A stretch of DNA of 15,101 bases from Candidatus Undinarchaeota archaeon (GCA_964636545.1 CAZWSR010000014.1:1-15101); one strand, 5' to 3'; shown: positions 6,774 through 13,358, numbered from the stretch's first letter. Made by a program: numbers and translations. The notes: generated from the letters alone by a model not told the origin.

Positions 6774-8519
6774 CTAACACTGTCCACTTGCAGCTGCCTG
6801 GTTTTGACTCAATAATGCATCACAGCCAGTTAGCCCTGTGTTCATACTGCAGATACTTTGTTTGAGTTGTTCAGCAGATGCCCCACTCCCCTGAATAACA
6901 TTGTTAAACAAGAATGTTGGAGATGAACCAATTTCAAGTTGGTTGGAATCTGCAATATTTTCAGTAAACAATCGAGTTCCTTCTGCTCCTTCAGCACAAG
7001 TTCTAATTTGAGAATCGCTTATGCCAACTTTCTTAATTAATGGGTAACTGTCAATATTTGCAAGGCAAGTCTGATAACCAGCATAATCCTGAGTTTCTGC
7101 CATAACGTCTCCGCAAGCATTATATTCTGCAATGTATGCAGTTGTGTAATCAAAGTATTTGTCTTTAGCATATTTTAGAATACAAACTTGAACAATGTTT
7201 TCATCAACTTCTGGTTGACCATGTAAACTGTCGAATGTGCCATCGCCATTGGCATTTGCAATAAATCTAATATCCCAATTAAGTTCTGGCATTGCAGTTA
7301 CAACTTCTTTCAAGGTTGCCTGCGCCATTGTTCCGTAAGGACATTGACTCATTATGAAAAGAGACACGCTGTCTGCTAGTTCTTCTCTGTTGATTTGTTT
7401 TACACCAGGAACACGAAGTAAATATAGGTCGCCTTGTTTTACAAGATACTGTTGAAGTGTTGCATAACCAGCTGAAGTTTCAATACTTGGATCAAACACT
7501 AATATTGGAAGTGAAGTTGCACTGAATGTGTTGATAAGTTCACTACCTTCTGTTGATTCATGGGAAATTGTTTCCACTTTCAAAGATGGAACAATTCCTT
7601 TTAACTGAGAAATAAGTGATGCTGCATCGCAAAGAGCACAATCAAGATCATTTACAACTGTTACACTAACTGGGTCTGCGACTTCAATGTTTGCACATAC
7701 ATCTGAGTTTGGAATTGCTTCACAAAGTGCTGTTGTAATTCCCTGTTCACTTCTTGAACCAGAATATTTTGCCCCATTAATGTAAATGGTTGGAGAACCA
7801 GATACTTGAAGTTCGCCAGATTTTTCGATATTCTCAATAAACAATTCTTTGGTTTCCTGAGTTTCTGAACAAGCTCGAATTGCTTCAGCATCAAGTCCAA
7901 CTGCATCTGCAGCAGCTTCAAATGAAGTTTCTGCGTTTCTATAATCAGGATTAAATTCTCTTAGATAATCAAAGAATTTGTCTGGGTTGTTTTTAATAAT
8001 ACAAAGCTGCCTCATATTTTCATCAACTTCAGGTTGACCATGCAGACTTGAGAAACCGTCGCCAGATTCTCTAGCTATGAAATACAAATTAAAATCAACA
8101 TCGCCGTCAAAGTTTTCAATTATCGGCATAATAAGATCTTCTGCCTGAACACCGTAAGGGCATTGACTCATAACGAAAAGATCAAGAGAAGCATCAGCTG
8201 AATTATCTCCGAAATTGCTAATCAATGCACCAGTTGGAGATGAAACTCCAGTGTTTGAAAACCATGTGAAAAATACAGCTAACAAAAGAAAAGCGCCAAC
8301 AAATGCTGCAACTTTTACAGATCCAGAAGGCATTCCAAGAATTCTGTTTGTTGCCTTGTGGTGGCAGTGTTTGCAGAAATCCTTTTTCTCGTGTGGATTA
8401 TGACATTTGCTGCAAATGTGTCCGCCACAACCATCACATTTATAGTAATGGTCCTTAGCAGGATGTAATTTAACTTTGCAGTGTTTGCAAGTGTGGTGTA
8501 TGAAGTCAACTTTAACCAT
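6774..8519 (-). CDS. Membrane-anchored multi-domain thioredoxin-fold (DsbA/GILT-like) protein with N-terminal Cys/His zinc-binding region
   Basis: CKHC, CDGC, CSKC and CKHC pairs, then a TM helix. Duplicated domain with F[VI]MSQCPYG ... F[SD]SLHGQPEVDEN ... [GS]SPT (cis-Pro loop), separated by a CALC thioredoxin-like domain. GAGG SD and TTATATAT at 8550-8557. Confidence 0.8.
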   Translation of the reverse strand: MVKVDFIHHTCKHCKVKLHPAKDHYYKCDGCGGHICSKCHNPHEKKDFCKHCHHKATNRILGMPSGSVKVAAFVGAFLLLAVFFTWFSNTGVSSPTGALISNFGDNSADASLDLFVMSQCPYGVQAEDLIMPIIENFDGDVDFNLYFIARESGDGFSSLHGQPEVDENMRQLCIIKNNPDKFFDYLREFNPDYRNAETSFEAAADAVGLDAEAIRACSETQETKELFIENIEKSGELQVSGSPTIYINGAKYSGSRSEQGITTALCEAIPNSDVCANIEVADPVSVTVVNDLDCALCDAASLISQLKGIVPSLKVETISHESTEGSELINTFSATSLPILVFDPSIETSAGYATLQQYLVKQGDLYLLRVPGVKQINREELADSVSLFIMSQCPYGTMAQATLKEVVTAMPELNWDIRFIANANGDGTFDSLHGQPEVDENIVQVCILKYAKDKYFDYTTAYIAEYNACGDVMAETQDYAGYQTCLANIDSYPLIKKVGISDSQIRTCAEGAEGTRLFTENIADSNQLEIGSSPTFLFNNVIQGSGASAEQLKQSICSMNTGLTGCDALLSQNQAAASGQC

Positions 8520-8623
8520 TTTTGTTCCTCAAGAGTAGTGACATAGGTCATATATAAGCATTAGCTTCTCCCGTAACCTCGTCTCGTTTGTAATGATGAA
8601 TGGAGTATTTAAATGTTATTTAA

Positions 8624-10099
8624 CTACCGTTTCAACTTCCACTTAACACCTTTTTTTGTGTCTTCCAAAATAATTCCTAATTTATCAAGCTCATTTCTGA
8701 GCCGGTCAGACTTATCATAATCTTTGTTAGTTCTTGCTTGATCGCGAATTTCAATAACTAAATTCATTAAATCACCAAATGTTTTGAATTTAGTTTTGTC
8801 AGATTTCAAATCTTTTACAAGTTTTGTAACAGAATCAATAATTGCTTCAGTTACTTGCGGTTCTGCTGGATTAAACAAGTTAAAAATATTATCAAGATCT
8901 TCAAATTCTTCAAGGAATTTTCTCAGAACTTTGCTAGTGTGCTTGCCTTCTATATATATATTAGCAAGTTTGGAAAGCTCGAAAAGTTTTGCAAGAGCAA
9001 TGCTTGTGTTGAAATCATCATCCAATGCAGAGAGAATTTCAGTTTTTATTCTTGTGATTTCTTTTGAAATTTTCTTGTCAGCAGGTGTTTCTTTTTCACC
9101 AGTTGCAACACCAAGTGCGTGCTTTATATTATTAATAGTATTAAGCAACTTATCAAGATTAGTTTTGGCTTGCTCAAGATAAATATCTGCAAAATCAATT
9201 TGAGAACGATAATGGGTTGAGAGAAGAAAGAACCGCAAAGTGCTTGCATCATATCGCTTTAGAAGCTCGCGAATTGTTGAGAAATTTTTGAGCGACTTGC
9301 TCATTTTTGCTTTGTTAACTGTCACAAAACCATTGTGCAACCAATATTTCACAAATTTCTTTCCAGTATATGATTCACTTTGAGCAATTTCATTAGTATG
9401 ATGTGGGAAAATTAAATCTTGTCCACCGCCGTGAATATCCAGAGTTTCTCCTAAGTATTTCATGGACATTGCAGAACATTCAATATGCCAACCAGGTCGG
9501 CCAGCACCCCAAGGTGAATCCCAGAAAATCTCTCCTTTTTTAGCTTTTTTCCAGAGAGCAAAATCAAGTGGCTCGTCTTTCAAAGTGGACGCTTCTATTC
9601 GCTTTCCAGTCTCCATTTCATCCAAATTCATTCCAGAAAGTTTTGTGTAATTCTTGGCTTTAGAAACAGAGAAATAAACATCGCCGTCAACATGATAAGC
9701 AAATCCTTTTTCAATTAGACCTCTGATAAGATCAATTATTTCAGGAAGTGATTCAGTTGCTTTTGGCTGGAAATCTGGTTTTTGAATTCCAAGAGCATCC
9801 ATATCAGTATTAAATTCTTGAGCAAAACGTGCAGCTAGCGCTAATGGATTAGTTTTTTCTTCATTTGCGCGCTTGATAATTTTGTCCTCAACATCAGTAA
9901 TGTTTTGAACATAAGTTACCTTAAGGCCTTTGTATCGAAGATACCTATTTACAATATCAAAAGCAACATAAGCACGAGCATGCCCCAGATGGGCATAGTC
10001 GTAACAAGTTGGACCACACACATACATGTGAACTTGCCCAGGCTTCATTGGCTTGAAAATTTCTTTTTTCCGAGTCAATGTGTTGTAGAGTTTTAGCAT
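8624..10099 (-). CDS. cysS: Cysteine--tRNA ligase
   Basis: MLKLYNTLTR, YVCGPT, HLGH (HIGH motif), GRPGWHIECSAM, DIHGGGQDLIFPHH, KMSKS, ALDDDFNT. Confidence 0.98.
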   Translation of the reverse strand: MLKLYNTLTRKKEIFKPMKPGQVHMYVCGPTCYDYAHLGHARAYVAFDIVNRYLRYKGLKVTYVQNITDVEDKIIKRANEEKTNPLALAARFAQEFNTDMDALGIQKPDFQPKATESLPEIIDLIRGLIEKGFAYHVDGDVYFSVSKAKNYTKLSGMNLDEMETGKRIEASTLKDEPLDFALWKKAKKGEIFWDSPWGAGRPGWHIECSAMSMKYLGETLDIHGGGQDLIFPHHTNEIAQSESYTGKKFVKYWLHNGFVTVNKAKMSKSLKNFSTIRELLKRYDASTLRFFLLSTHYRSQIDFADIYLEQAKTNLDKLLNTINNIKHALGVATGEKETPADKKISKEITRIKTEILSALDDDFNTSIALAKLFELSKLANIYIEGKHTSKVLRKFLEEFEDLDNIFNLFNPAEPQVTEAIIDSVTKLVKDLKSDKTKFKTFGDLMNLVIEIRDQARTNKDYDKSDRLRNELDKLGIILEDTKKGVKWKLKR

Positions 10100-10100
10100 C

Positions 10101-11012
10101 TTAATCCACCTTAAATATCGGCGTACTTAAGTATTTCGCGCCACCATCTGGAAGAACAGTTACAACAATTCCACTCTCAAGCTTCTCTGCCTCTTGCAAA
10201 GCAATATGCATTGCAGCACCAGAGCTCATTCCAGCAAAGATTCCTTCTTCTTTTGCTAGCGCTTTTGTCCACTTAACAGCATCTTCCTGAGTCACATTGA
10301 TTTTCTCATCCACAAAATCTTCCTTAAAGATTGATGGAGGAAATGGCTCGCCCATGTTTCTCAAACCCTGAATTGGCTTGCCAAGGAAAGGCTCTACTGC
10401 AACTATTCTGGCATCTGGATATTTTTCTTTAATCCGTCTTCCAGCACCCATTATAGTTCCGCCAGTGCCGATTCCTGCAACAAACACATCAATTTTTCCA
10501 GGCACTTGGTTAACAAGTTCAATACCAGTTGTTTCATAATGTGCTTGCTCATTTGAAGGGTTGTTAAATTGATCCGGGAGGAAGTATTTGTCAGGATTCT
10601 CCTTAGCCATTTTGTAACCATCTTCAACAGCCCCAGGAGTACCCCTTGACCCTTCAGTTAGGACAAGTTCAGCACCAAATGCCTTGAGAAAAGCTCTTCG
10701 CTCAACACTAACGCTTTCAGGCATCACAAACAAGGTTTTGTAGCCCTTTTGGGCCGCCACCATTGCCAAACCAATTCCAGTATTGCCTGAAGTTGGCTCA
10801 AGAATGATCTTGTCTTTTGTGAGCTTTCCAGTGCGCTCAGCATCTGCTATCATATACTTGGCAATTCTGTCTTTCACAGAGCCGCCAGCATTATTCCGCT
10901 CTAACTTGACGTAGAGCGAAACATTCTTGTTTCGGTTCAGTTTGTTTATTTTCACAACCGGAGTTTCACCGATCAATGCGTTTACATTTGCCTTAGCGGC
11001 AAAGGTAACCAC
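10101..11012 (-). CDS. cysM: PLP-dependent cysteine synthase (CysK/CysM family, CysM-like IQGLRN loop)
   Basis: GGSVKDR (PLP lysine), EPTSGNTG, QFNNPSN, GIGTGGT, GMSSGAA, PDGGAKYLST. Stop is 1 nt from the cysS start. The GTG start is uncertain (see findings) and the CysK vs CysM assignment is tentative. Confidence 0.9.
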   Translation of the reverse strand: MVTFAAKANVNALIGETPVVKINKLNRNKNVSLYVKLERNNAGGSVKDRIAKYMIADAERTGKLTKDKIILEPTSGNTGIGLAMVAAQKGYKTLFVMPESVSVERRAFLKAFGAELVLTEGSRGTPGAVEDGYKMAKENPDKYFLPDQFNNPSNEQAHYETTGIELVNQVPGKIDVFVAGIGTGGTIMGAGRRIKEKYPDARIVAVEPFLGKPIQGLRNMGEPFPPSIFKEDFVDEKINVTQEDAVKWTKALAKEEGIFAGMSSGAAMHIALQEAEKLESGIVVTVLPDGGAKYLSTPIFKVD

Positions 11013-11040
11013 TATTTTTTCCTAAAGTTTTTTCACTCAT
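10993..11040 (-). CDS. Possible short uORF MSEKTLGKNSGYLCR overlapping the cysteine synthase start (or the frameshifted N-terminus of that gene)
   Basis: AGGAG SD at 11050-11054, 9 nt before ATG 11040. TAA at 10993-10995. Out of frame with GTG 11012 by one nucleotide. Confidence 0.4.
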   Translation of the reverse strand: MSEKTLGKNSGYLCR

Positions 11041-11061
11041 TTTTGTAATCTCCTAAAATTA

Positions 11062-11088
11062 GACATCTGATAGTTAATATCAAATATC
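11062..11088 (-). other. Hairpin immediately 3' of tRNA-Cys
   Basis: GATATTTGATA-TTAAC-TATCAGATGTC: 11-bp stem with two G-U pairs. Confidence 0.55.
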
Positions 11089-11091
11089 TGA

Positions 11092-11164
11092 AGCAGGGAG
11101 GGGGATTTGAACCCCCATCATGCGCTCTGCAGGCGCACGCATAACCGGGTTTTGCTATCCCTGC
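11092..11164 (-). tRNA. tRNA-Cys (GCA)
   Basis: Acceptor stem GCAGGGA/TCCCTGC with U discriminator, anticodon arm TGCGC-CTGCAGA-GCGCA, T arm GGGGG-TTCAAAT-CCCCC. No encoded CCA and no intron. Confidence 0.97.
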
Positions 11165-11231
11165 GCTTTTTTTTAAAAAAGTCACTAGCAAAGAAATTTT
11201 AAAGAAAAGAGGAACACCTATGAATCTGTTT

Positions 11232-11273
11232 TCAACAACAGCAACAACAACAAATTTTGTCTGTGTTCATCAT
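11232..11273 (-). CDS. Putative polycysteine leader peptide MMNTDKICCCCCC
   Basis: ATG ATG AAC ACA GAC AAA ATT TGT TGT TGT TGC TGT TGT TGA: six consecutive Cys codons then a stop, directly upstream of tRNA-Cys, cysteine synthase and cysS. Confidence 0.8.
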   Translation of the reverse strand: MMNTDKICCCCCC

Positions 11274-11293
11274 TTTGAGAGTAGCAGTGGTAG

Positions 11294-11301
11294 TATTTAA
11301 A
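11294..11301 (-). promoter_or_regulatory. Archaeal TATA box for the leader peptide / cysteine operon
   Basis: TTTAAATA beginning 28 and 31 nt upstream of the two tandem ATGs, consistent with a leaderless transcript. Confidence 0.6.
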
Positions 11302-11302
11302 T

Positions 11303-11638
11303 TTAACTTAAAGTGCAATCAGATGTTGGCTCTTCATCAACTAAACCATCGCCATCATCGTCCTCACCATTCCAAGTTCGCATTTCACACGCTTGTTCAT
11401 TAATACACAAGCAACCGCCAGTGTTGTCACAAGCTAGTTCATTGCAATCAAGATCAGCGCAGTCAATTAGACCATCATTATCATTATCCAATTCATCATA
11501 ACAATTTGTTTCAGCAGTATCAAATCCAGCAGCTTCAGTAAACTTTCCAACCATGCCAGAGTTACTAGATAAATAAAAGGCTCCGCCACCAACAAGTAAG
11601 AGTGCTATAAAAACGATGATGATTATTTTCAATTCCAT
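11303..11638 (-). CDS. Small membrane-anchored Asp/Cys-rich protein with putative metal (Ca)-binding repeats
   Basis: N-terminal TM helix. ETNCYDELDNDNDGLIDCADLDC and NGEDDDGDGLVDE are DxDxDG-type repeats. TTTTATAC box at 11663-11670. Confidence 0.8.
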   Translation of the reverse strand: MELKIIIIVFIALLLVGGGAFYLSSNSGMVGKFTEAAGFDTAETNCYDELDNDNDGLIDCADLDCNELACDNTGGCLCINEQACEMRTWNGEDDDGDGLVDEEPTSDCTLS

Positions 11639-11704
11639 TGCACAGATATTGTGAACTTGCTGGTATAAAAGGGTTTTGTGGAGAGATTGCGGATATGGTT
11701 AATA

Positions 11705-11823: not shown

Positions 11824-12489
11824 ATGGCACAGAAAACCTCAGCTCAAAAGAGTAGCGGAAATAAAGTCGTCTCATTAATCTCGGGCGGCATTGACTCTCC
11901 GGTTGCATCATCTCTGATGCTCGACCAGGGTCTTGAAGTGATTTTTGCGCACTGCGACAGCAGACCATTTACGAAAAATGAAACAGTTGATAAAACAAAA
12001 GAGCTAATAAAAATTCTTGCAAAGCGTTACAAAATAAAGCCACGGCTCTACATGATACCGCATGCTCCAGTACAATCTGCTATTCTTGAAAAAGTTGATC
12101 ACAAAGTTCTTTGTGTAATTTGCAAGCGAATGATGTACCGAGTTGTTGAGAAAATTGCTGAAAAAGAAAAAGCTCATGCACTTGTGACTGGCGAGAACCT
12201 TGGCCAAGTTGCTTCTCAGACACTTGATAATCTTGTTGTTGAGGATTCTGCAATAGGACTCCCAATTCTTCGCCCATTGCTTGGATATGACAAAAACGAA
12301 ATCATAGAAATTGCTAAGAAAATAAACACATATTGGGTTTCAATACTTCCAGGAGTTTGCTGTAAGTTTGTTCCAAAATACCCTGAAACTCATTCTGAAC
12401 TTAAAGAAATTGAAAAACTAGAAAAACAAATTGATATTAAAAAACTTGTTAGTGATGCAGTGAAAAACGCAAAGGAGGTAGCACTATGA
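11824..12489 (+). CDS. thiI: tRNA 4-thiouridine synthase ThiI, catalytic PP-loop domain only (CxxC type, no THUMP domain)
   Basis: SGGIDSPVA PP-loop, CVICKRMM, TGENLGQVASQTLDNL, RPLLGYDKNEII and a downstream CC. Only 221 aa. Confidence 0.9.
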   Translation: MAQKTSAQKSSGNKVVSLISGGIDSPVASSLMLDQGLEVIFAHCDSRPFTKNETVDKTKELIKILAKRYKIKPRLYMIPHAPVQSAILEKVDHKVLCVICKRMMYRVVEKIAEKEKAHALVTGENLGQVASQTLDNLVVEDSAIGLPILRPLLGYDKNEIIEIAKKINTYWVSILPGVCCKFVPKYPETHSELKEIEKLEKQIDIKKLVSDAVKNAKEVAL

Positions 12490-13358
12490 AATTTGACACA
12501 ATCCTTGTGCGTTATGGAGAAATTGGTTTGAAAAGTCCACAGACAAGACGAATTTTTGAAAACAAGTTTATGGAAAATATCAAAGGACTTCTTAACAAAC
12601 ATGTTATTGATTTTGAAGATATTAAAACAGAATGGGGCAGAGTTTACATTAACACAACTGACGAGAATGCTCTTAAATTACTTAGAACAATTTTTGGAAC
12701 AGCTACATTTTCACCAGCAGCATCTTGCTCAGCAGACATGAAAGAAATTTCAAAATTATCATTAGTAGTTGCAAAAAGTAAAATTAAGAAAGAAGATACA
12801 TTTGCTGTTCGCGTTTCAAGACAAGGAATTCATGATTTCAAAAGTCGCGACATCAAAAAACAAATTGGTTCTGACATAAAAAAAGCAACTGAAGCAGGTG
12901 TTGATTTAGATAAGCCAAACCGCGAAGTTTTTGTTGAAGTGCGGAACAAAAAAGCTTATGTTTTTGTTGAAAAAATTCCAGGACCTGGTGGAATTCCGCA
13001 GGGGATTGAAGGAAAAGTGCTTGGGATTTTTGATGAGAAAAAACCATATCAGGTAGCTGCTTATTTAATGGCAAAGCGCGGTTGTGAAATTGAAGCAGTT
13101 GCTTCAAAAGAACTTGATTTAGGTAATTTAAAACACTGGCTTGGTGATTTCAAAGTTCATATTGTTGATTCAAAAGATCTTTACAAAGAAACTGAGAGAA
13201 TTGCAAAAGAGCAGAAAATCAAAGCGATTTTCACAGCAGATGGGCTAAATGAATTGCAAGATTTTAAGAAAATTAAAATTAATGTTCCAATCTTCAGACC
13301 TTTGATTGGTTTGGATGAGAGGAAAATTAAAATTGTTGAGCAGAGTATAAATGGATAG
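12486..13358 (+). CDS. ThiI-like THUMP domain protein with degenerate C-terminal PP-loop domain
   Basis: ILVRYGEIGLKS (ThiI N-terminus), TFAVRVSR..H.F.S, VDLDKP...VEVR, GPGGIPQG.EGKV. SGGIDS is absent but AAYLMAKRGC and PIFRPLIGLD remain. ATGA overlap and GGAGG SD. Confidence 0.88.
   Translation: MKFDTILVRYGEIGLKSPQTRRIFENKFMENIKGLLNKHVIDFEDIKTEWGRVYINTTDENALKLLRTIFGTATFSPAASCSADMKEISKLSLVVAKSKIKKEDTFAVRVSRQGIHDFKSRDIKKQIGSDIKKATEAGVDLDKPNREVFVEVRNKKAYVFVEKIPGPGGIPQGIEGKVLGIFDEKKPYQVAAYLMAKRGCEIEAVASKELDLGNLKHWLGDFKVHIVDSKDLYKETERIAKEQKIKAIFTADGLNELQDFKKIKINVPIFRPLIGLDERKIKIVEQSING

Follow-up and report, generated by a model that had tools for sequence, protein, structure and literature searches.

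Leader peptides, the ribosome-read sensors of amino acids, are textbook bacterial biology, and the pheST genes of Escherichia coli with their pheM leader show that a tRNA ligase can also be under leader-peptide attenuation. In the tufB operon of E. coli, a tRNA gene stands upstream of protein genes in one transcript and is freed by RNase P and 3′ processing, and the prfB gene of release factor RF2 is autoregulated by a +1 frameshift at CUU UGA C with an upstream Shine-Dalgarno (SD)-like element. Transcription termination in archaea uses oligo-T tracts and factors. The mycobacterial leaderless polycysteine short open reading frames (ORFs) of the Ms5788A class are described as acting by translational attenuation, with base pairing between the Cys tract and the SD region ahead of the following gene (Canestrari et al., bioRxiv 10.1101/834739). 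The hungry-codon site of Ty1 is given as CUU AGG C (PMC5009743), and the relevant part of a 2021 review (PMC8211752) names, for archaeal cellular genes, one demonstrated −1 frameshift case and no +1 case. In the literature searched, we found neither archaeal leader-peptide control nor cysteine-linked frameshifting. Here, we analyzed a 15,101-nt stretch of DNA from a Candidatus Undinarchaeota archaeon (GCA_964636545.1, CAZWSR010000014.1:1-15101), hereafter the window, in which a mini-ORF with a run of Cys codons precedes the genes of tRNA-Cys, cysteine synthase (cysK), and cysteinyl-tRNA ligase (cysS). With some reserve, we favor a reading of the sequence in which these four genes form one unit that would measure charged tRNA-Cys by ribosomes at two points.

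All four genes lie on the minus strand, and the order given by an earlier sequence-only reading of this DNA (leader ORF, tRNA-Cys, cysteine synthase, cysS) is correct. The leader mini-ORF (MMNTDKICCCCCC plus stop, 11232–11273) has 13 codons, ATGATG...TGA, and six of the 13 are Cys codons in one uninterrupted run (11252–11235). The gene of tRNA-Cys(GCA) follows at 11092–11164; it was detected by ARAGORN, scores 62.3 bits with the Rfam tRNA model, and has U as discriminator and no encoded CCA. An Rfam scan at the gathering threshold found nothing besides this tRNA. The cysteine synthase (10101–11012) is a PALP enzyme of the cysKM subfamily, which lies in the +1 frame of a second short ORF, uORF2, and has a possible GTG start of its own at 11012. 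It passes the NCBIfam cut-off of the cysKM subfamily (370.5 bits versus 344.15) and stays under the equivalog cut-offs of cysK (337.5 versus 350.95) and cysM (332.9 versus 394.2). The cysS gene (8624–10099) passes TIGR00435 (558.9 versus a cut-off of 340), and its ATG is located 1 nt past the cysK stop (TAA G ATG).

The window is a whole 15.1-kb contig of an assembly of 0.84 Mb in 39 contigs, which is 83% complete. Since the rRNA fragments are best fitted by archaeal models and the tRNA set includes Arg(GCG), the host is considered a small DPANN-type archaeon. DNA runs containing the stretch are marine and hydrothermal-vent metagenomes; no RNA run was found to contain positions 8600–11700. Contigs from four independent metagenome runs match positions 10900–11118 with 0–2 substitutions and no indel, and contigs from three of the same runs match the leader region with 0–1 substitutions and no indels; the layout is thus not an assembly artefact. 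In contigs of runs X2, X3, and X4 covering 11200–11290, a relative's 89-nt leader stretch has diverged at the same length between conserved flanks (tRNA and promoter).

To place the locus among its relatives, 152 archaeal cysK loci (L numbers; genomes are given G numbers) were surveyed. The loci comprise the 20 best places, a set of 4, a set of 60, and 68 from one large DPANN phylum. Of the 60, 40 follow the ranking downward from its first entries and 20 are additional ones, most from genomes of about 1.3 Mb or less, with some listed places left out; the DPANN-phylum set omits four listed places, three of which were already included (G246, G192, G174), while a second place in G621 lies inside L189. 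The survey is centered on cysK, and kin in it are not independent. Mini-ORFs with clustered Cys codons (ATG start, 4–30 codons, at most 750 nt upstream of cysK) were found on the sense strand in 23 of the 152 loci and on the antisense strand in 2. In the leaders of relatives, the Cys run is kept at a length of 3–6 while the N-terminal codons vary. Base composition predicts about 0.001 runs of six TGY codons per 840 kb, and the leader is the only run of at least five Cys codons in a short frame of its genome. A genome-wide scan of G000 with loose cassette and Cys-run patterns returned mostly noise within coding regions.

The complete order of leader, tRNA-Cys, cysK, and cysS is also present in G011 (leader MKLNLCCCC) and G004 (MKRNLCGCCCSQ). 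Locus L275, a marine metagenome contig, carries the leader MEPKTIECCCCCC, a near-identical tRNA-Cys, and then a cysS that is 83% identical, with no cysK. Since L275 retains the leader, the tRNA-Cys, and the ligase without the synthase, these three appear to be the conserved module. The succession of leader and tRNA-Cys thus recurs in three relatives of the window (L005, L006, and L275). In another DPANN phylum, mini-ORFs with one Cys codon precede tRNA-Cys and cysK in L180, L181, L185, L190, L215, and L217; these ORFs upstream of tRNA-Cys read MAGELVCKV and similar. The conservation of the Cys run and the sense/antisense counts bear out the earlier description of the leader as a conserved Cys-codon ORF, and we consider that it is very probably a real Cys-sensing element.

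The tRNA-Cys gene itself is the sole one found, as far as an 83% complete assembly can tell: it is one of 36 tRNAs, or one of 43 with introns allowed, and BLAST returned no second copy. Across the survey, tRNA-Cys lies on the cysK strand in 27 loci, 11 times upstream and 16 times downstream of cysK, and on the opposite strand in none; 12 of the 16 downstream genes sit 12–150 nt before cysS. All flanks of the 152 loci together contain 10 non-Cys tRNAs.

We then built a matrix of the B recognition element (BRE) and TATA box from the upstream regions of the 33 other tRNA genes of the genome (consensus AACACTTTTAAAGC). Scores reach at least 8.5 in 20 of these 33 tRNAs (median 9.1), mostly at sites ending 21–30 nt before the tRNA. 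At the usual distance, the promoter score of tRNA-Cys is 1.3, the lowest in the genome, compared with 3.1–13.0 for the other 33. The earlier statement that the 79-nt gap between the tRNA and the GTG holds no convincing TATA box was confirmed, as the maximum score in or near the gap is 4.7 versus the median of 9.1 for the 33 tRNAs; the site with this best score ends merely 5 nt before the GTG. The best candidate for a promoter is found immediately upstream of the leader: a BRE/TATA element on the minus strand (11292–11305; TATA core TTTAAATA at 11301–11294) scores 4.8 and is placed 18 and 21 nt before the two leader ATGs. The homologous leader site of L275 reaches 9.3, with its end 21 nt upstream of the leader ATG. 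In L275, L180, L181, L190, and L217, the highest score within 300 nt of the tRNA is 7.1–9.7, at a site whose end is 21–30 nt upstream of the leader ATG. On the other hand, a good promoter at the tRNA itself was found only in L183 (9.6) and L184 (6.6), the two loci with tRNA-Cys upstream of cysK but no leader.

Since tRNA-Cys has no promoter of the tRNA type and a promoter-like element precedes the leader, the tRNA seems to be transcribed from the promoter of the leader. The proposed co-transcription of leader and tRNA-Cys is thus probable, in view of the weakest tRNA promoter signal of the genome at tRNA-Cys and the best site upstream of the leader. The spacing of 18–21 nt to the leader ATGs resembles the 21–30 nt between tRNA promoter elements and tRNA 5′ ends, and the leader transcript is likely leaderless, starting at or next to the ATG of the mini-ORF. 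On the plus strand, an antisense promoter-like sequence, AGAAATTTTAAAGA (11192–11205), is located between the leader and the tRNA and scores 7.6, above any sense-strand site in the region.

The spacer between leader and tRNA contains several candidate signals on the minus strand. A conserved post-stop block (11201–11222) includes the sequence CATAGGT (11222–11216), invariant in four of four aligned relatives, and is seen in the alignment to be followed by a U-rich tract, CTCTTTTCTTT (11201–11211). A T6A8 tract (11167–11180, with T6 at 11180–11175) lies directly 5′ of the tRNA and is a candidate oligo-T termination or pause site. The sequence GTGTTC (11217–11212) can pair over 6 bp with GAACAC (11268–11263) ahead of CTCTTTTCTTT, and this pairing is present in the minimum-energy fold. 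From these elements we tentatively suggest that the leader might act on termination at the U tracts by way of a stalled ribosome.

A second set of signals follows the tRNA. A 12-bp hairpin (11061–11089, minus strand) begins 2 nt past the 3′ terminus of the tRNA and has no counterpart in L005 or L006. The spacer between tRNA and cysK folds at −24.2 kcal/mol with z = −3.7, and none of 200 shuffles folded as well. Next come the SD sequence TAGGAG (11055–11050) and uORF2 with its stop (MSEKTLGKNSGYLCR, 11040–10993), together spanning 10993–11055 on the minus strand and overlapping the start of cysK. The putative slip site, CTT TGC, is located at 11004–10999; the 0-frame stop lies two codons past the Cys codon, and cysK, with its PALP/cysKM domain, is in the +1 frame. 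This layout of uORF2 and a +1 cysK is found in three phyla: in L005, L006, and L017 of the same phylum as the window, in L020, L115, and L116 of a second, and in many loci of a third. L005, L017, and L171 lack any ATG, GTG, or TTG in the frame of cysK over the interval from the upstream stop to the conserved GxTP motif; the +1 frame of L017 and L171 is closed by a TAG that directly abuts the TTT of the slip site.

The bias of these mini-ORFs was examined in three ways. Among ORFs overlapping the N-terminus of cysK, a Cys residue occurs within the last six residues in 33 of 75 when cysK is in the +1 frame versus 7 of 92 when it is in the other frame. When cassettes are defined by peptide (a mini-ORF of at most 30 codons with G-[ED]-x-[LVIFM]-C), 40 are sense and none is antisense. 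In 36 of these 40 cassettes, Cys is preceded by NTT (CTT, GTT, or TTT), compared with 27% NTT among the corresponding codons of cysK itself, and 38 of 40 have no stop in the +1 frame over at least 36 codons. A strict nucleotide motif gave 42 sense and 5 antisense matches; in five whole genomes the motif gave 28 matches versus 4 for the reversed control, and 11 of 14 in-frame cassettes fall in the cysK locus. The 3′ end of the 16S rRNA (GATCACCTCCT) is complementary to the GGTGA before the slip codon. Most cassettes carry GGTGA or GGGGA 3–4 nt upstream of the slip codon, and the window has just AGTGGT. Besides cysK, the cassettes have as +1-frame partners small HTH_20/ArsR-like regulators, frames through tRNA-Cys, an amidohydrolase, and LAGLIDADG proteins. 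Taken over the whole family, the frame relations and codon bias make it rather likely that cassettes of the uORF2 type work by +1 frameshifting at a hungry Cys codon. The same mechanism is less certain for uORF2 of the window since a GTG start is also present there; we lean slightly toward it.

Several relatives show further forms of the cassette. In L193, L206, L213, L214, L215, L225, L239, and others, all of one DPANN phylum, genes of 60–70 codons for HTH_20/ArsR-like regulators are located beside cysK, and each begins in the +1 frame of a one-Cys cassette. In L171/L259 (G246:C13, about L259:1500–2520), the cassette MAGELVCKV stands ahead of a +1 ORF of 333 codons that has a LAGLIDADG_3 domain and crosses a tRNA-Cys-like sequence; this sequence is apparently broken by three short insertions, and ARAGORN finds no tRNA in it. 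A LAGLIDADG gene within a tRNA-Cys intron of G246 was considered and rejected, because the tRNA-like sequence is downstream of the LAGLIDADG part of the ORF. In L011, L012, and L127 (family f24), the normal ATG of cysK is overlapped by mini-ORFs whose last residues before the stop are ...EDYEDC, ...GGGEC, and ...DNYEDC, and this overlap may be a variant of the device that needs no frameshift.

Four accounts other than the proposed one were considered. The poly-Cys ORF could give a small transcript of its own that ends at the U tracts, with tRNA-Cys, cysK, and cysS expressed constitutively from a weak or atypical promoter by the tRNA. Several observations speak for such an arrangement or against our reading: the leader promoter scores just 4.8 in the window, T4 and T6 tracts lie between leader and tRNA, and a TATA-like sequence, CTTTAAAAT (11204–11196), is found 31 nt before the tRNA, inside the 21–32-nt range of other tRNAs; this sequence has no purine-rich BRE and might work nonetheless. 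Moreover, 13 of the 33 other tRNAs likewise score below 8 with the matrix, and L180 and L185 have TTTAAATA 25 nt before the tRNA. However, no other tRNA of the genome has so low a promoter score as tRNA-Cys, a TATA-like sequence before the tRNA is missing in L275 and L006, the spacer from leader to tRNA is conserved, and a good tRNA promoter appears only where the leader is missing. We therefore regard separate units as improbable. The leader could otherwise work by continued translation, in which ribosomes slip +1 at ATT TGT and read through the tRNA to the start of uORF2, thereby delivering ribosomes or shielding the RNA. In the window, the leader +1 frame (11033–11254, minus strand) indeed has no stop for 73 codons, beginning with TTT (11254) and crossing the tRNA gene up to a TGA (11035–11033) 5 nt past the uORF2 ATG, as occurs in 298 of 20,000 shuffled spacers (1.5%). 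In the other DPANN phylum, +1 frames of 57–59 codons run through tRNA-Cys from the one-Cys ORF, and those of L180, L181, L190, L172, and L259, read from the sequences, terminate at an ATGA or GTGA that they share with the next start. In L005, L006, and L275, however, the +1 frame is open for just 19, 12, and 21 codons, respectively, so conservation of an ORF through the tRNA among poly-Cys leaders was rejected; the first Cys codon of these loci follows CTG or GAA, which is not slippery, and we know of no precedent for the translation of a tRNA sequence. Continued translation is accordingly judged improbable too, somewhat more so than separate units. The existence of the ORF is all that speaks for a chance ORF or a functional Cys-rich micropeptide (e.g., a metal binder) with no regulatory role. 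The chance expectation of six TGY codons per genome given above, the conservation of the Cys run alone at a length of 3–6, and the constant position of the ORF upstream of cys genes or tRNA-Cys make this account scarcely credible. Returning to the leader as a sensor acting on termination, its mode of action has results to contend with: comparison with shuffled sequences reveals no excess of folding in the leader region (z = +0.36); of 30 Cys-run leaders, only 3 pair with the 45 nt that follow them better than controls do at the 0.05 level; and fold and duplex tests revealed no antiterminator and no demonstrable terminator/antiterminator pair. A stable leader hairpin is thus not supported, nor is a general helix between leader and post-stop sequence across Cys-run leaders, for which the median control fraction is 0.70. 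The close set (L004–L008, L114, and L117) trends low in the duplex test, with fractions of 0.01–0.225 in a set that was chosen after seeing the result. Pairing of the mycobacterial type between Cys tract and SD was also rejected, as E = −6.2 kcal/mol is equaled or exceeded by 77% of 500 control windows.

The remaining alternative concerns uORF2, which may be no frameshift site at all. CysK would then start at GTG 11012, with rare starts in relatives, and uORF2, by its translation, stalling, or termination, would tune initiation through occlusion or re-initiation. A GTG in the cysK frame is found 2–3 codons before the site in the window, L006, and L020, and the GTG of many cassettes is part of their GGTGA motif; in L011 and L127, a normal ATG is located within a mini-ORF that ends Cys-stop. 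The GTG of the window also has an AGGA 7 nt upstream, so that the frameshift is not required here. Further observations weigh on the same side: uORF2 of the window (SGYLC) is outside the strict cassette motif, L115, L116, and L226 carry CGG TGC, which is not slippery, and some cassette partners (LAGLIDADG, amidohydrolase, NFACT-R) are not obviously cysteine genes. Against an ordinary uORF, L005, L017, and L171 offer no canonical start, with TAG directly before TTT in L017 and L171, and NTT precedes Cys in 36 of 40 cassettes against the 27% background. In addition, a ribosome stalled at the Cys codon would probably cover the GTG, which is the wrong sign for a biosynthetic gene. We hold an ordinary uORF to be unlikely, though less so than any of the three accounts of the leader, and keep the +1 frameshift as the working interpretation. 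The substrate of the synthase raises one more difficulty. A bona fide cysE was not found in the assembly, where the best candidate is a sub-threshold hexapeptide protein with 48 bits versus a cut-off of 210.65.

In the model that we propose, an archaeal TATA-type promoter would start a transcript at or beside the leader ATG. When Cys-tRNA-Cys is scarce, the ribosome would be slowed at the six Cys codons of the leader and would prevent the post-stop RNA, with its CATAGGT block and U-rich tracts, from stopping transcription, so that more polymerase would read through to tRNA-Cys, cysK, and cysS. RNase P and RNase Z would then excise the tRNA, leaving a cysK-cysS mRNA with the hairpin at its 5′ end, on which ribosomes would begin at the SD-led uORF2. 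With ample Cys-tRNA, the UGC codon would be read and translation would stop two codons later. With an empty UGC codon, peptidyl-tRNA-Leu is predicted to slip from CUU to UUU (+1), and the ribosome would continue into cysteine synthase. Scarcity of Cys-tRNA would thus raise the amount of +1 product, a response in the appropriate direction for a biosynthetic gene. Since the ATG of cysS lies 1 nt past the cysK stop, cysS would be translated by coupling. Of this model, the gene order, the conservation, the positions of promoter-like elements, the frame relations, and the codon bias are observed, and the transcription start, the read-through, the tRNA processing, and the frameshifting with its dependence on Cys are inferred. 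The model departs from the sequence-only reading in two respects. That reading saw a single switch, an idea that does not stand: the tRNA is followed by a second Cys-codon device, uORF2 with cysK in the +1 frame; it also held that control must be transcriptional or co-transcriptional, which need not be the case for transcription alone since the uORF2 device sits after the tRNA.

Upstream of the unit, an ORF of 111 aa (11303–11638, minus strand) has a hydrophobic segment at its N-terminus together with an acidic double-disulfide repeat (NF033662, at 38.9 bits a little short of the cut-off of 41), and its stop codon overlaps the promoter-like element of the leader. Farther upstream, ThiI is encoded on the plus strand as two overlapping genes in swapped order: the first (11824–12489) contains the PP-loop/ThiI catalytic part, and the second (12486–13358) contains ThiI_fer, THUMP, and a partial ThiI domain. 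A split gene of sulfur transfer and tRNA thiolation adjoins the cys unit. Directly after cysS, a 581-aa protein with thioredoxin, DsbA, and GILT-like domains is encoded at 6774–8519 (minus strand), and a TATA-like sequence, CATTTAAATAC, is found just behind the cysS stop. A cysK homologue scan of genome contigs listed 80 loci (more exist), 79 of them bacterial by title, and was not used for synteny. Among the matches listed, no Cys-run mini-frame stands directly before cysK, except for an ambiguous one in L104. The best of the listed matches (L034–L113) to this archaeal CysK are bacterial, at 57–58% identity, in metagenome-assembled genomes of Deltaproteobacteria and Nitrospiraceae. These sequence identities hint at gene transfer.

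Beyond the window, the data incline us, with the same caution as for the unit itself, to a portable cysteine sensor in DPANN archaea. The sensor would be a mini-ORF of 5–25 codons with an SD-like GGTGA, NUU, a Cys codon, and an early stop, which shifts the ribosome by +1 when Cys-tRNA-Cys is scarce and gates cysteine synthase, a small ArsR-like regulator, or frames through tRNA-Cys. Together with the leaderless poly-Cys ORFs, it would be the first ribosome-read amino-acid control in Archaea and the first natural regulatory +1 frameshift at a hungry sense codon for the pathway of its own amino acid. If this is true, a sensor heading the transcript of its cognate tRNA and ligase would close a feedback loop on Cys-tRNA-Cys, beyond the amino acid, and the second device would be the first conserved +1 frameshift of archaeal cellular genes and a new physiological use of recoding. 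In these genomes, gene callers would misplace the starts of cysK and of the small regulator genes or cut these genes short, and metabolic reconstructions of DPANN archaea that call cysK "broken" could consequently be wrong.

Compared with the known systems, the leader resembles the described features of the Ms5788A class in three respects: it is a short ORF upstream of cysteine genes, probably at the transcript 5′ end; it has at least two consecutive Cys codons, six in the window; and the ribosome would serve as the sensor of charged tRNA-Cys. It differs from that bacterial class, as far as the description goes, in its archaeal host, in the absence of pairing between Cys tract and SD sequence, in the tRNA gene that lies between, and in the second device that follows. 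The leader shares with the classical attenuators (trp, his, and pheA) a leader rich in the regulatory codon ahead of the cognate pathway, while no terminator/antiterminator pair is demonstrated here. The inferred co-transcription of a tRNA gene upstream of protein genes is like that of the tufB operon, but the tRNA of the window is cognate to both the leader codons and the downstream ligase and lies behind a translated sensor ORF. The uORF2 device shares with prfB and with the Ty1 site, as described, a P-site NUU that would re-pair on UUU, a slow A-site codon, a 0-frame stop soon after the site, and a functional protein in the +1 frame. The GGTGA a few nucleotides upstream in most cassettes may correspond to the SD-like element. 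It differs from both in its archaeal host and in its location at the very start of the gene, after a mini-ORF of 5–25 codons. As in prfB, the limiting decoder belongs to the pathway of the product, but the A site contains a sense codon for Cys, which an aminoacyl-tRNA decodes, and not a stop codon decoded by a release factor; the device would work like prfB without being a member of its family. The feature is thus probably a variant of the known ribosome-read sensors in a new domain of life, with the cognate tRNA inside the unit and a second sensor based on frameshifting.

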